Positions 45,001 through 57,000 of a stretch of 64,000 nucleotides of DNA are shown piece after piece. The position numbers were made by a program. The number at the start of each line of letters is the position of its first letter. Within the stretch, counting starts at the first letter, position 1. The stretch is from the NCBI RefSeq assembly GCF_050320075.1, contig NZ_CP190018.1; one strand, given 5' to 3'. This DNA is from Escherichia coli (GTDB lineage Bacteria; Pseudomonadota; Gammaproteobacteria; Enterobacterales; Enterobacteriaceae).

Positions 45001-48000
45001 ACGTGAGGAGTCAGATACTCCATGGCAAACAGCGCCATTTCCGGGTCGTAAAAATAGACCTGCGGAATCAGTGTGTGACCCGCGTACTTGGCTTCCTGAC
45101 ATAAGACGTTGTACTCAAAGCCCGCACGGCTCAGAGATAAAGGCCATCCTTCGCCCCCTGCACGAAGCCAGGGCAGAGCTTGTTTTACAATGATGGTTTT
45201 ATGTGTCCCCTCAACGATAAACACCATGTTCAGGTTTCCGTCCCCCACTTCTGAAACTTTCCACTCTTCAGGTAACCCTCCCGGTTCGCATGAAGGGGTC
45301 AGTCTGGACGAGAGATAACCCGGCAGCGTGTCACATGTCAGCGGCTTGTAACCTGATGGAATTGAATCCGTCATAACAGTTCTCCTTGTCTACACAGAAT
45401 GATAATCAACTTGTCATGTGACAACTATACATTATCAAATGTAAAATTATTTGTGACACATGTAGATTTTTTGAACTGTATAATATTAAAAATGATGTCG
45501 TATGGAGTCATGATCTTTACAGGAATCAGCAGAGGAAAACATCTATTATTACCATGTAATTCATGTTGTTATGTCGCAACAATAGTACTGCACGGGGAAT
45601 TATTACGGGCAAACTTAGGCGAAAGGAAGTACTGAAGTGACAGAATAAATCACACTTTTTGTACATATGTACTTTTCTATTGTCTTTTGTTGTGGAAACA
45701 AATAGTGTTTGTCATGCCGATGCTAATAGACAGATAGATTCGAGGGCCAACAGCCCCATCATCATGATGGAGCAACAGAGGTGAGTCTAACGTTTCCGCA
45801 CTTCTTATCGATCGGCACTAACGATCAATATCGATAAACTGATCTATCAAAACGATTATCTTTCTTGCAACCTGCCTGGTTATCCTTCTCTTACATTGCT
45901 CGCAGAAAAGCCCTTTTATTACGGTTAGTTATCTAGCTGAGACTTGCTACGCCCATTTTCCATGTACCCCAAATCACGAGGTCACAAAGGCGCGGAAAGA
46001 TGAAGAGATGTGCACGTTGCAACAAAAAAAGAAGCGTCCTTGAACAGAGGCTCTCACTCGATAAAGAATTCTGCGACGAGTGCTTATTCGATATCGATGA
46101 GGAAATCAGGGAAAGAAGGATTATCACGATCAGACGCCTCAAAGATGACAACGAAAGAAAATCGTAGCTCAATATGAAAAATGGAATCGATGTCAGCGTC
46201 ATTATCCCTGCTTACAACGCCGCTGAAACCAGCGTTAGTTTGGTTACTAAAATCCTCAGTGAACCCCACTTGGCTATTGAACTTATCATTGTCGATGACG
46301 GTTCTACTGATGAAACTGGCAACGTTCTTCGTCAAATCCACGATGATCGGCTCATTCTCATTGAGCAGGCCAATCAAGGTGTCTATGCCGCCCGAAATGC
46401 TGCTCTAGCCTTGCACCAAGGAGAATAGGTTATATTCCTTGATGCGGACGACGATATAGCAGATGGGTTCATAGAAAAAAGATGGCAGGCAGTTAGTACG
46501 TCGCAAGCCGACGTCATGATCTTTAATGGCTGGCATTCCTGTGCTGACCAACATCGAAGAGCGGTTCACAAAAAGCAGCCCTATGGTACGCCTCTGTCAG
46601 GTTATTAATGGATTAGACACTGTGTTACACACCGCGAATGGCCGCATTATCTGTGGCTGCAGATGGTCAGGCCATCCTATGTCAGGCAGCATTCACTGCG
46701 CTTCCAGTCCGGCAGGAGCCATAAAGACATTTTTTAAACGGTTCATCTTGCAGCGAGCAATGGTTGATTCTGTACATTGGATATAAAGGACTATATCTAT
46801 ATCAACAATAAGGCCTCTATCACACATCGGCCGGATTACTACGTTGTTCGTGCTATAAACTATGTTGAAGTGATCGCGAAAATCATCCAAGTAGCGGAAC
46901 AAGAACAAAACAAAAAATAAAGGTATTTTTGTACCGGCATGCGCTGGTAGAGGCACGTCATTTTTTGGGACTCTACCGCAATCGCGTTGGGGATAAATCG
47001 GGCATGAAGGACTGCTTCAAAGCGAACATATTCGCAGCCCATTTATTCAGAGGTATCAGCAGTTTTAGCGATGTGTTTTTCTTTATTAAGCTGCTGGGCA
47101 AGCTATTCTGATAAGTTGTGCGTTGCTACACGACACCAGCGCACAGCTTAATTTCACGCTTTCTGACTAAATTGTTCAGGCCTTTTCTATAGGTGCAAAC
47201 ACAACTCCCCGTACTTTCCTCTTCCAACTCAAAATCATCGCACCTTGCTGACCCAAGAAGGGAGCATACCCTGCACTAGTATCCGCACAGCTAATACTCT
47301 ATTGATACCAACAACGCTTCAGCACAACAAAGTAACTCGATAATCACAACTCAAAGTGAAGATGCCAAAAACTCGTTTGAGAGCAATAAATTCAATAACA
47401 TGAAAAAAATGTATTTTGCATTGAAAATCTTACTTATTGCGCTTGGCTACAATTGCATGCTTGGTAATATAGATTATAAAACACCAGACTAGCTGCCTGG
47501 TAAGTAATGTAATAGCAGAGGAAATATCACGATGGATCTTGTAGATAGTGTCGAAGCAGGTAAGCTGACGATCAGTGAATTGATTGATGCCCTGGCGAAA
47601 GATAAAAATTACTCAGCTTCCAAGTGGGATCAGCGATACCGTGAATTTACGACCTTGCTACAACAAACCTCAACTTTTTCTGAACCTGAAACGGATGGTT
47701 TAGTCAAGAGGCTCTGGTATGAACGCGATAACGGTATTGCCAGTATTCGCCAGGGCGTTCCATCCTTAGCAGAATATCAGCAAAGCCTGCCACTGCTTAG
47801 AGAACTAACTGAACGAATTCGGCAACAGCCGGATGAAGAAACTTACCAATATGTTGGCAATGCACTACAACAAGCTAAAGAAAACGGACTTCTCAAGCGT
47901 ATGTATAGGAGTTTGAGAAATCGCGTCTTTGCCGCGTTCTCGCCAGAAAACTACACCAGTACTGTGGATGAGAATGCTTTTAGTAAAGCAGCAGAATTCC

Positions 48001-54000: not shown

Positions 54001-57000
54001 AGAAGCTTATTAAATTCATTCAAATCCAATTTGTAAATATTTTTGGCAACATAAGCCTCAATTTTCAACTCAGCATCACAACATCCCTCTATGCAAGAAA
54101 TCACAAGTTGTTTTAATTCAGAATGTTGTAATAATATTTTTTCAGACGGTATTGCAGTTTTTCGTAAGGCTGACAATGATACATGACCAGTAGCTAAAAA
54201 GCTTCTTAATTGAAATTCAAAACAAAGGGAGTTTATAATACCAAGCAAACTAAAGAGCGAATCTTGCGAACCACTTTTATAATAGACCACCCCTAATGAA
54301 TTCCCTGCCAAAGAGTTAGGAGGTATTATCGTTGCAATCATTCGCCTTTTTTGACTCGGGCGTGAAATGTCACGCCATGCAATCCTTACGAAATTAGAAT
54401 TGGATAGAACCTTATCAATTTTTTTCGTTATTCTTAAGCTCTTCTCATTATGAAAATTATACCTCCCAATCATTTTTCCTTTAATGAATAATAATCCGCC
54501 GCCACTTTTTTGTGTCCAGTCACTACTACCAGTTTCATCTATTTCTCTTCCTGCCCATATCTCTCCATTTTTTTCCAGACTACCCCATGTTGGGTATCCC
54601 TCTTGCAGCTTTCTTAACAAATGAACGGCATGAACACCTTGAGATACCGGAATGCTAAGATATTGAGAATCTATACTAGACAAATCAAAAAAACCTAGTG
54701 ATTTAATATTTAAGTTTTTATCATACACACTAAGTTGAATATTATCATTAAGGGATTCACCTTTATTAAAAATAAAAGAACATGAAGAAACATCAGCACC
54801 GCCGAATAATTTAGCCTCAGCTGGATAATAATTTATGCAATCAATCCTCCCTGAATTAAAAAACTTTTCACGTAATATGTACGATTGTTCATCTGCGAAA
54901 AAAGATGCAGGCATAACTATAGCTACCAATCCATTTTTATTACATATTTCTAAGCTAAGTTCTGCACCAACACGTGAAAGATTAGTCCCCCACCCAGCAA
55001 ATTTACGCTTCGGCTGAGAATATGGCAATACTCTTGACAAATAATCATCAAACTCACGAAGAGAGTCTATATACATCGATTTCATAGATGGTTCAAAAAA
55101 ATCGAGCTCTCTAGAATCTGGTTTTATATTCTCCCAAGGCGGATTGGTTATAACACAATCAAAATAATCAACATATTTTTTAAATTCATAAAAAACATCA
55201 CTATTTTTTATAGTAATGTTAATATTTGCACCTGCTAACTTAAGTTCAGACAACGCATTTTTAGCATAAGTGAGGCCTGTATTTTCTATATCGAACAGAT
55301 AAACATTCCACTCTACATCTGGAAAACCATTTATCATCCATTGTTTAATAAGCAATGTAATAAGTCGACCATCCCCTGAAAATGGATCTGCGACATTATA
55401 ACTTTTTTTATCACAGGAATTTATCAATGGTAATAACTTCTCTATCATCAAAAGAGCTATTTTTGGATCTGTATAGTATTTACCTGTCGCTTTTTTAGTG
55501 AATTTTGTTGTCTCGTCCAAGGACAGTGAATTAATTAAATGGATATGTTTCATGTAAAATATCTCTTCCATTAATAATATGGATTATATCATTTAACTTG
55601 TGAACACTCAACAATAACTGTACATAAAAACAGTCATTAAAGATTTCCCCTAGAGTGAGCATCGCTATAAAAATTTAAATTAATTTTATCCTGCTCCGAA
55701 AGAAACAGTTATCATTTATTCCATAAAGAATAACTTGCTTTATAATCACTTTAAATATCGATATCAATTTTAATACTATGGTTACTTACCATATCAATAA
55801 ATAGCTTAACCCGTTATCTCGATACCCCTTAAGAACCCCTTCCGCAACTGCAACATAATCTACGCTCATCCACATGCCTGGCTTTAACTGTTCCTGATAT
55901 AAGTTGACAGTTTTCTGTCCGTAAAACGGTTGATGAACTTCATCGGGCGTTTTGTATTTCAATGCCAAATGTGACCGCTCATGGTTATAAATTGCCACGA
56001 ATTCTTTTACCATTTACCGGCCCTACGTCAGCTCTGCAGGACGCGAGAGTAAAAACTCATTTTCAGGATTCCGTTTATCCACTCAGCCTGCGCATTCTGG
56101 TGGCAGTTATAACCATTAGTCATTGAACAGGTTATTGATAAATAATTAAAAAACTCAGCTTTCTGGCTCGCCTGCTCAAGCTGTTCTTCAAGTTCCCTGA
56201 TTCTTTGCTCGGGTGTCAGCGGGACAGTCGCCAGAGCCACAGGCAGTCTCCTCTTTACCTGGTCAGGAAGTCCGGGGCTCCAGTCAAGCCGGCCATATTT
56301 ACGCAACCAGACAAGAACGGTGGAGCGCCCCTGAATGCCATAACTGCAGCCGGCCTGTTTATAAGTCATCTCGCCTTTTTCAACCTTCTCAACAACGGCT
56401 ATTTTAAAGGATAGAGGATAATCACGTTGAGTGCGTTTGAACCCAGACATCATCACGTTCTCCGGGTTTAAGTCAGGAACGTGTCATAGCTATTCAGGAC
56501 GGGTCACCGACACAAAAAAAGTCGCCCTTGAGCGACTCGATTTGCATACGGTATGGTGCGAAGGCCGGACTCGAACATGTGACTTAACCTCATGATTTAA
56601 AATTGTTAATAATAAACAATATCATCTTATACCAACACAGATACCAACACGAAAAATCACTGGTTTTCGGCATCGAACCAGGACAATCAGCTCCTGATTG
56701 AGATACCGAGCTCTGTTACTCGTCATCTTCCTCGACAGGCTTCATTGCATCAAGTAGTACTCGCACCATCGCGATAGAACCAATCCGGATAAAAGCATCT
56801 TCTCCATCTATATCTGTTAACTGATATCGCTCACTTGATGCCGGATAAGTGTGTCGATTTGCAGCTGTGTACTCTTTTGTACAGCCAGAATGTGGCTGAC
56901 TGAGGTGGAGCAGATAATGTCCCCGTTGACCACTTCCGGACGGGAGGCTGTGATTTCAGACATAATTGATATTCCTTTTTGCAGATAAATGAAAACGCCA

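Follow-up and report, generated by a model that had tools for sequence, protein, structure and literature searches.

Eco31I restriction-modification genes and a McrBC-like pair as probable neighbours, not partners, in the leuX genomic island of Escherichia coli

Five adjacent genes in Escherichia coli, two of them McrBC-like and three of them AT-rich restriction-modification (R-M) genes, raise the question of whether they make up one defence machine or two. The locus was analysed within a window of 64,000 nucleotides, the whole stretch of DNA under study, in which five open reading frames (ORFs), all intact, occupy positions 47532-55571. An earlier note had described five adjacent genes in two modules ending at 55553. 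The arrangement was confirmed, and that end proved to be the RefSeq start of M1, the last gene, whose longest ORF extends to 55571. Compared over 29 kb, the window showed 0 mismatches to YZLc1-3, which is closer to its host strain than EC958 is. Of the 5426 complete E. coli genomes, 588 contained the whole five-gene block. Our analysis makes it very probable that the leuX genomic island harbours, at this locus, two independent, previously described defence modules next to each other.

The two parts of the locus were distinguishable by composition. The G+C content was 0.457 and 0.451 in the McrB-like and McrC-like genes, and 0.339, 0.359 and 0.331 in the nuclease gene (R) and the methyltransferase genes M2 and M1, with a third-position G+C of 0.23-0.25 in the R-M genes and a G+C of 0.50-0.52 in the neighbouring mtnK/mtnA genes. 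These computed values (33-36% for the R-M genes versus ~45% for the McrBC-like pair and ~50% for the flanks) agree with the earlier estimate of about one-third G+C. The junction between the two parts (50887-50995, plus strand), delimited by alignment, sequence and composition, also holds the presumed promoter region of the R gene. At the other side, IS3-family transposase remnants (55786-56456, minus strand), recognised from the sequence and from the RefSeq annotation of an identical record, mark the right end of the AT-rich insert, and the G+C content rises from 0.33 to 0.48 at position 56000. The foreign origin proposed earlier for the R-M module is supported by this composition together with its uniform identity of at least 99% in 634 genomes.

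The nuclease gene (50996-52735, plus strand) encodes a protein of 579 aa. In the profile search it reached 663.1 bits against TIGR02986, above the curated cut-off of 443.85, and it matched Pfam RE_Alw26IDE (PF09665) across residues 44-559 with a value of 4.9e-188. In UniRef the exact sequence is listed as Q8RNY7_ECOLX. The HNH motif named in the earlier note corresponds to an HNH-type segment of the form DH...CxxC...NN (D311-H312 ... C330-x-x-C333 ... N338), lying within residues 294-341, where the Pfam matches to HNH (294-340, E = 0.003) and HNH_5 (E = 0.0056) were weak. The assignment of the Eco31I HNH active site reportedly rests on mutagenesis done by Jakubauskas in 2007. Eco31I is included among the HNH restriction enzymes listed in PMC2816704 (citing Jakubauskas 2007). 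According to the literature, R.Eco31I recognises GGTCTC and cleaves at N1/N5.

The nuclease gene and the methyltransferase gene pair are convergent, separated by a 12-bp gap containing a G+C-rich hairpin (52741-52761, no strand assigned), a candidate bidirectional terminator proposed from a consensus scan only. M2 (52748-53938, minus strand) encodes 396 aa, and M1 (53931-55571, minus strand) encodes 546 aa if the longest ORF is taken, and 540 aa if translation begins at the RefSeq start, 55553. The two genes overlap by 8 bp and so form an M1-M2 operon. Promoter-like sites upstream of M1 (55576-55611, minus strand; TTGAGT-17-TATAAT with an extended -10 TG) are also candidates from the consensus scan, in which promoter-like sites in the region overall were not more numerous than in shuffles.

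Both methyltransferases exceeded the cut-offs of their profile models, M1 with 662.3 bits against TIGR02987 (cut-off 353.5) and M2 with 175.7 bits against TIGR00675 (cut-off 100.65). M1 contains DPFSGDG at residues 62-68 and NPPW at 143-146. M2 is circularly permuted: motifs IX/X (REAA at 100, GNAV at 126-129) stand ahead of motif I (FSGAGG at 155-160) and are followed by motif IV (PPCQ at 230-233, with catalytic C232), ENV at 270-272 and QRRKR at 312-316. The NPPW of M1 and the PPCQ of M2 substantiate the earlier note's pairing of an amino-methyltransferase with a C5-cytosine methyltransferase. The lengths of 546 aa (longest ORF) and 396 aa equal those taken for M1.Eco31I and M2.Eco31I (PMC10810934). 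Published M2.Eco31I is a permuted C5-methyltransferase that targets the inner cytosine, with residues N127 and Q233 (PMC3526304) and the catalytic residue C232 (Forde 2015), and all three residues coincide exactly with the window M2. The mark of M1 is GAGm6ACC on the bottom strand and that of M2 is the inner C of GGTCTC (GGTm5CTC); in vitro, BsaI was blocked at GGTCTC by M2.Eco31I (PMC10810934).

The five translated window proteins were identical to those of EC958, an ST131 strain, and had the same RefSeq WP accessions; no protein-level difference was detected between the window and EC958 RM.EcoMI. Forde et al. 2015 named the EC958 system EcoMI, reported its methyltransferases to be 100% identical to M1/M2.Eco31I, found GAGm6ACC 100% methylated by SMRT sequencing, predicted the m5C mark and placed the system on GI-leuX with McrBC genes adjacent. 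The gene order and orientation of Eco31I of E. coli RFL31 and RM.EcoMI (Bitinaite 1992, 2002; Forde 2015) are the same as in the window, as are the motif GGTCTC/GAGACC and the island GI-leuX. As judged from these identities, the three AT-rich genes are the Eco31I system itself, already known. The earlier note had matched the arrangement to no described E. coli system, and this claim is withdrawn, since the same five proteins occur in EC958 as RM.EcoMI beside McrBC (Forde 2015). It had also allowed that the block might already be catalogued, and it is, as Eco31I/EcoMI.

The same nuclease family, TIGR02986/PF09665, includes Alw26I, Esp3I and BsaI (recognising GTCTC, CGTCTC and GGTCTC), and these systems, like that of the window, place m6A on one strand and m5C on the other. 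M.Alw26I and M.Esp3I are two-domain methyltransferase fusions. Against the PADLOC type II methyltransferase model PDLC03237 (1036 positions), M1 matched positions 114-640 and M2 matched 655-981, a split consistent with such fused relatives; unlike them, M1 and M2 of the window are separate, overlapping genes. The type IIS comparison with Eco31I/BsaI-like systems made earlier was well aimed, as both R and M1 lie above the Alw26I/Eco31I/Esp3I cut-offs.

An R-M module in decay or silenced, with the methyltransferases left as orphans and the nuclease non-functional, is an unlikely reading. It would account for the position of the module amid IS remnants and pseudogenes and for the truncated or IS-interrupted copies found in some genomes, and the literature found on the system, in which Forde 2015 calls the nuclease 'apparently full-length', contains no report of nuclease expression or activity in ST131-like strains. 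Against this, none of the three ORFs is interrupted, their products equal the EC958 proteins, and the nuclease matches the Q8RNY7_ECOLX sequence. Moreover, at least 80% of the module is retained at an identity of at least 99% by 591 of its 634 carriers. GGTCTC was also rarer than expected in the window (8 sites vs 18.5 +/- 4.7), a weak signal that fits ongoing restriction pressure.

The other two genes encode a McrB-like AAA+ GTPase of 691 aa (47532-49607, plus strand) and a McrC-like PD-(D/E)xK nuclease subunit of 428 aa (49600-50886, plus strand), the latter starting inside the end of the former with an 8-bp overlap. The McrB-like protein has a helical N-terminal domain (residues 1-221), a disordered linker (~222-236) and a GTPase that carries Walker A (GPPGTGKT, 245-252), FHQSY (399-403), Walker B (DEINR, 451-455), the signature NTADR (505-509) and the arginine fingers of RRRF (519-522); GPPGTGKT, DEINR, NTADR and RRRF were invariant in 72 homologues. 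A winged-helix insertion (~272-393) lies inside this GTPase. The McrC-like protein matched Pfam McrBC (PF10117) over residues 59-383 with 5.2e-97, and its putative catalytic residues D322, D338 and K340 align with the catalytic segment of EcoKMcrC. These motifs and matches support the earlier recognition of a McrBC-like pair, and from its sequence the pair is assigned to the McrBC family in the broad sense, as an AAA+ GTPase with a PD-(D/E)xK partner.

Forde 2015 went further and equated the pair with K-12 McrBC at a syntenic place, cutting R-m5C...R-m5C. The two share an overlapping two-gene operon, the Walker A/B motifs, NTADR, the arginine fingers and a PD-D-x-K McrC, the AAA+ cores of the McrB-like protein and EcoKMcrB share 40% identity, and both systems would be compatible, since GGTm5CTC does not qualify as R-m5C. 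This equation is nevertheless very unlikely to be right. Neither protein reached the cut-off of its NCBIfam equivalog model (143.5 against 637 for McrB and 98.2 against 338 for McrC), and the identity to EcoKMcrC is just 25%. In BLASTP, the McrB-like protein showed no similarity to EcoKMcrB outside the AAA+ core and none to residues 1-195, the 5mC-binding domain; the Pfam search found no MrcB_N (MrcB_N/DUF3578) in it, and the predicted model of its N-terminal domain was all-helical with no significant PDB relative. The 120-aa winged-helix insertion of the window protein is absent from EcoKMcrB, and the N-terminal domains are unrelated. The sites differ as well, K-12 mcrBC being a neighbour of hsdS within the immigration control region and the window pair lying in the leuX island. 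By these sequence comparisons EcoKMcrB and the McrB-like protein are not orthologues, and the published assumption of R-m5C cutting is unsupported given the unrelated helical domain and the insertion.

The nearest solved GTPase core is that of Thermococcus gammatolerans McrBC (PDB 6ut3-6ut8; sequence E = 9e-55, Foldseek 1e-17), and solved McrB structures headed the hits in both comparisons. TgMcrB also has a non-SRA reader domain, reading m6A via a YTH-like N-terminal domain according to the literature, and in the alignment it lacks an insertion at the position of the winged helix of the window protein. There is an even chance, in our estimate, that the pair constitutes an uncharacterised type IV specificity class that reads DNA through the winged-helix insertion and the helical N-terminal domain. 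If this is true, its target would be something other than R-m5C, and the likening to K-12 McrBC in the literature would be wrong.

The distribution analysis bears on whether the pair and Eco31I work together. The McrBC-like cassette was found in 1056 genomes, roughly a fifth of the complete E. coli genomes, at identities of ~90, 95 and 100%, often without Eco31I and sometimes without any nearby methyltransferase. Its homology begins ~180 bp upstream of McrB and, as compared with FORC_081 and E. coli W, stops ~40 bp past the McrC stop (~50925), where the AT-rich DNA sets in. In FORC_081 and EC7518 the cassette stands alone in CP4-like islands, beside IS elements and with no adjacent methyltransferase; the McrB-like alleles there differ from that of the window at 60 of 691 aligned positions (~91% identical). 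Alleles of ~97% identity adjoin a phosphorothioate-dependent HNH enzyme and a type I-like methyltransferase. Some Eco31I carriers, such as Nissle 1917, have the McrBC-like pair broken by IS elements, so the pair could be dispensable or costly in those carriers.

A case for a single machine comes from LlaJI and BsuMI, which resemble the window in that a McrB/McrC-like pair adjoins two methyltransferases whose site is asymmetric. In an integrated system of this type, the pair would cut unmodified sites and both methyltransferases would protect the host from the pair and from R.Eco31I. There are McrBC relatives, LlaJI among them, whose targets are unmodified asymmetric sites and which require two methyltransferases (review PMC12707154), and McrBC-methyltransferase associations are prevalent (Bell 2024). 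In PADLOC, the McrB-like protein scored best against a model labelled type II restriction endonuclease (PDLC03547, 3.8e-15), and its fold matches include a B. subtilis YdjA-YdiS model. In addition, the McrBC allele of at least 99% identity occurred in 633 genomes and the Eco31I module in 634, two lists counted separately; such near-equal numbers fit one shared haplotype, and linkage could hide functional dependence. Such integration is nonetheless highly improbable. The window methyltransferases, unlike those of LlaJI/BsuMI, belong to a separate and complete system that has a nuclease of its own and is described in the literature as self-sufficient (Forde 2015), and the ~91% and ~97% identical alleles stand with no adjacent methyltransferase or with another one. 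Obligate linkage of the pair to protecting methyltransferases, as in LlaJI/BsuMI, was not observed, the cassette occupying 1056 genomes vs 634 for Eco31I. The differing G+C contents, separate homology boundaries and differing distributions instead indicate that the two modules occupy adjoining places in the leuX defence hotspot: on sequence grounds, they are neighbours and not one machine, and the earlier idea of a composite island as a functional unit is not upheld.

Two mechanisms are accordingly proposed, one for each neighbour. Module 2 (~50925-55786) would act as the Eco31I type IIS R-M system. The asymmetry of GGTCTC means that the two strands have to be marked separately: M1 would place an N6-methyl group on the bottom-strand adenine and M2 a C5-methyl group on the top-strand inner cytosine, and R.Eco31I would cut unmodified incoming DNA 1 and 5 nt downstream of the site with a single HNH active site. 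Published work on identical proteins has demonstrated these steps; for this lineage, the intact gene leads us to infer an active nuclease. Module 1 (~47350-50925) is proposed to be a McrBC-family GTP-driven nuclease. Its conserved motifs and homology suggest a McrB-like AAA+ ring that translocates DNA and switches on the McrC-like PD-(D/E)xK subunit, and the target would be read by the helical N-terminal domain and the winged-helix domain inserted in the GTPase, not in the 5mC-flipping manner of EcoKMcrB. Because the cassette also occurs without an adjacent methyltransferase, the pair most likely acts type IV style on a foreign DNA modification or other non-self feature and not on unmodified sites. 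The earlier argument, that neighbouring marks have to be tolerated by any modification-dependent system, is logically sound, and it presumes that the pair reads methylated bases.

Eco31I has been sold commercially since the 1980s. The R-M part of the locus adds little new: that ST131 carries it, which motif it methylates and in which island it lies have been in print since 2015 (Forde 2015). Carriers of the locus, including ST131, Nissle 1917, ATCC 25922 and others, are predicted to restrict unmethylated DNA bearing GGTCTC, which is of relevance for the transformation of carrier strains and for Golden Gate-type vectors with BsaI sites. The McrBC-like pair, for its part, is common in E. coli and has a reader architecture unlike that of the K-12 enzyme. 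Barriers to phage therapy and plasmid transfer in these lineages may therefore include an uncharacterised modification-dependent specificity of this pair.

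Five intact and tightly packed open reading frames were called in the window at 47532-55553, the positions given in the earlier note, in which the genes, all of them real, had been read correctly. The first two encode an McrB-like GTPase (47532-49607, plus strand, 691 aa) and an McrC-like nuclease (49600-50886, plus strand, 428 aa), and overlap by 8 bp. A restriction-modification (R-M) module follows, made up of a nuclease (50996-52735, plus strand, 579 aa), a C5-cytosine methyltransferase, M2 (52748-53938, minus strand, 396 aa) and an N6-adenine methyltransferase, M1 (53931-55571, minus strand, 546 aa; the RefSeq start of M1 is 55553, the same as the end coordinate in the earlier note). 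Calculated per gene, G+C was 0.457 (McrB-like), 0.451 (McrC-like), 0.339 (nuclease), 0.359 (M2) and 0.331 (M1), confirming the value of about one third estimated by eye for the R-M genes. Third-position G+C of the R-M genes was 0.23-0.25, and the overall G+C of the adjoining mtnK and mtnA was 0.50-0.52.

The R-M module is Eco31I itself. In profile searches, the nuclease (663 bits, cut-off 444) and the adenine methyltransferase (662 bits, cut-off 353.5) passed the curated NCBIfam thresholds of the Alw26I/Eco31I/Esp3I family, and the third gene exceeded the cut-off of a C5-methyltransferase model; the type IIS comparison with Eco31I/BsaI made in the earlier note was correct. Against Pfam, the nuclease matched RE_Alw26IDE (4.9e-188) and showed a weak HNH match at residues 294-340; Eco31I is included in lists of HNH restriction enzymes (PMC2816704). 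The exact nuclease sequence is named Q8RNY7_ECOLX in UniRef, and a sequence search found no solved structure for it. The 9-kb region holding all five genes was 100% identical in many complete E. coli chromosomes, including ST131 strains, and at least 80% of it was present in 588 of the 5426 complete E. coli genomes. In the ST131 strain EC958, the Eco31I homologue was described as EcoMI, with M1.EcoMI and M2.EcoMI each 100% identical to the Eco31I methyltransferases, the cognate nuclease gene on the opposite strand from them, an McrBC pair immediately upstream, a location on GI-leuX, and m6A at 100% of GAGACC sites in SMRT sequencing (Forde et al. 2015, mBio, PMC4659465). All five translated EC958 proteins were identical to those of the window, and their RefSeq accessions were the same in EC958 and in the record matching the window. 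The catalytic C232 of the window M2 agrees with the numbering of that study. M2.Eco31I is a circularly permuted C5-methyltransferase whose target is the inner cytosine of GGTCTC (PMC3526304); the window protein has its motifs at positions that fit this description as well as the engineered residues N127 and Q233 (PMC3526304), and the lengths of 396 and 546 aa equal the published sizes (PMC10810934). The block is a catalogued R-M system, and on the earlier note's own terms this refutes novelty of the five-gene arrangement.

The working of the module can be outlined from the literature on identical proteins. Since GGTCTC is asymmetric, a single methyltransferase cannot mark both strands; the bottom strand would be marked by M1 (GAGm6ACC) and the top strand by M2, at the inner cytosine (GGTm5CTC, a mark predicted for EC958), and unmodified DNA would be cut by the nuclease at N1/N5. 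M1 and M2, whose genes overlap by 8 bp, are presumably carried on one transcript. Consensus scans placed a candidate promoter-like site for M1/M2 at 55583-55611 (minus strand) and a hairpin at 52741-52761, in the 12-bp gap between the convergent nuclease and M2 genes; such sites were plausible yet showed no excess over shuffled sequence, and are noted here without being used as evidence. In the PADLOC type II methyltransferase model PDLC03237 (1036 positions), M1 matched 114-640 and M2 655-981, suggesting that fused M1-M2 relatives exist in which a permuted C5 domain follows the adenine methyltransferase; this order is consistent with the gene order and the 8-bp overlap in the window. The window contained eight GGTCTC/GAGACC sites (18151, 24724, 25972, 28596, 29294, 30923, 33866 and 38989) versus 18.5 ± 4.7 expected from shuffles, with none in its island part (39000-64000). 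This shortage is a weak hint of site avoidance. However, such sites are over-represented in many islands and prophages of EC958 (Forde et al. 2015, PMC4659465), and given this opposite trend the shortage may be local noise.

The McrBC-like pair was regarded by Forde et al. (PMC4659465) as the same system as that of K-12, in a syntenic place and expected to cut R-m5C. Judged from sequence, this statement does not appear to hold. The pair scored far below the cut-offs of the equivalog models (143.5 versus 637 for McrB and 98 versus 338 for McrC), and its identification as K-12 McrBC was rejected. Outside the AAA+ core (40% identity over 389-608) and the P-loop there was no similarity to K-12 McrB, the reader architecture differed, and the McrC-like protein was only 25% identical to its K-12 counterpart. 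Moreover, K-12 mcrBC lies beside hsdS, whereas the window pair is in the leuX island. The target given for the pair in the literature is an assumption. Motif inspection found the GTPase motifs and the McrC D-D-x-K motif intact. Assignment to CoCoNuT systems was also rejected, the pair having a canonical NxxD signature (NTADR), an intact McrC nuclease motif and no helicase or HEPN partner.

Two AlphaFold models (pLDDT 90.9 and 91.7) agreed on the architecture of the McrB-like protein, predicting that a disordered linker follows an all-helical N-terminal domain (1-221) and that a compact domain (~272-393) interrupts the GTPase after the P-loop helix and before the strand bearing FHQSY. The closest solved relative of the protein was T. 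gammatolerans McrB. The N-terminal domain had no significant solved relative and no Pfam, PHROGs or PADLOC match, and querying protein sequences with residues 1-225 gave nothing beyond fragments of this protein and close relatives from enterobacteria. Among the best 150 of 25,627 homologues, about 16 had this N-terminal domain and most aligned across 235-680 in one stretch, so the insertion is not peculiar to the window protein. Insertions, likely encoding specificity domains, are frequent in McrB GTPase domains, and McrBC-methyltransferase associations are common (Bell et al. 2024); the pair is thus an uncharacterised member of a recognised pattern and not a new kind of system.

The earlier note had joined the five genes into one candidate composite island. 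The evidence says that the McrBC-like cassette and Eco31I are not one system. The cassette occurred in 1056 genomes and fell into allele classes of about 100, 95 and 90% identity; the Eco31I module occurred in 634, every copy at least 99% identical. Homology of the cassette to other genomes began ~180 bp upstream of the McrB-like gene and stopped ~40 bp past the McrC-like stop codon, where the AT-rich DNA starts; that DNA runs as far as IS3 remnants near 55786. Near fim/leuX in E. coli W and an O178:H19 strain, the cassette had a phosphorothioate-dependent HNH enzyme on one side and, on the other, a type I-like methyltransferase with an S subunit. In FORC_081 and EC7518, it stood alone between IS elements, in CP4-like islands at different loci and without an adjoining methyltransferase. 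The latter occurrences argue against the reading that the pair, like LlaJI and BsuMI, cuts unmodified sites and relies on the neighbouring methyltransferases for protection, which we consider very improbable. The Eco31I-linked McrB allele differed from the others mainly, though mildly, in the N-terminal domain and linker (N-terminal domain 5.9-10% versus 1.3-3.5% in the core), with the winged-helix insertion (272-393) nearly unchanged relative to E. coli W, and the allele comparison gave no clear sign of co-adaptation in the DNA-reading parts. Since the two modules differ in distribution, boundaries and neighbours, and no defence hotspot of E. coli is more heavily occupied than the leuX region (PMC12707154), the Eco31I DNA looks like a recent AT-rich insertion beside an older resident cassette, in line with the recent acquisition suggested in the earlier note for the R-M genes. 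When plasmids and phages were searched for a possible vehicle of transfer, the module matched only two plasmid records, one of which (834 kb) is perhaps not a genuine plasmid, and a single remote homologue on a phage contig (33% identity).

Several Eco31I-carrying genomes had IS insertions inside the matched stretch. ISEc52 breaks the McrB-like gene of Nissle 1917 into two pieces annotated 'restriction endonuclease', an IS1 is listed with the cassette match of OZ040035, and one ST131 genome has ISEc12 somewhere within its 9-kb region. Where the cassette is of the 95% allele class (E. coli W, locus 7954-21345; O178:H19), the phosphorothioate-dependent HNH enzyme precedes the cassette, and genes for a 128-aa hypothetical protein, a 715-aa HsdM-family methyltransferase and the S subunit follow it in the same orientation; beyond these are a 428-aa hypothetical protein and another, very large one (more than 1100 aa), truncated where the examined locus ends. 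The whole set may be a larger multi-gene defence operon.

From 35000 to 64000, the window matched chicken isolate YZLc1-3 (NZ_CP123240.1) with no mismatches. Just inside the island, a methylthioribose salvage cluster on the minus strand (42318-45374) adjoins the defence genes and comprises mtnK (44115-45374), mtnA (42990-44105) and an L-fuculose-phosphate aldolase-like gene (42318-42959); the cluster is not known from K-12. A complete IS66-family element with ISCro1-like tnpA/tnpB/tnpC (39463-42078, minus strand) separates this cluster from a GRP sugar transporter gene; no IS66 element is annotated at that position in EC958. Between mtnK and the cassette lies a decayed family-2 glycosyltransferase gene (46174-47100, plus strand), of which 46174-46428 is annotated as an 84-aa N-terminal fragment and the later frames are broken. 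On the far side, an annotated antirestriction protein gene (59464-59949, minus strand) lies ~4 kb from the R-M module within one CP4-like island segment, along with genes for a JAB/RadC-like protein (58973-59449), YeeU antitoxin (58217-58585), CbtA toxin (57750-58127) and DUF987, DUF5983 and DUF957 proteins.

Taken together, Eco31I was known and catalogued before, and the apparent composite is adjacency within a defence hotspot.
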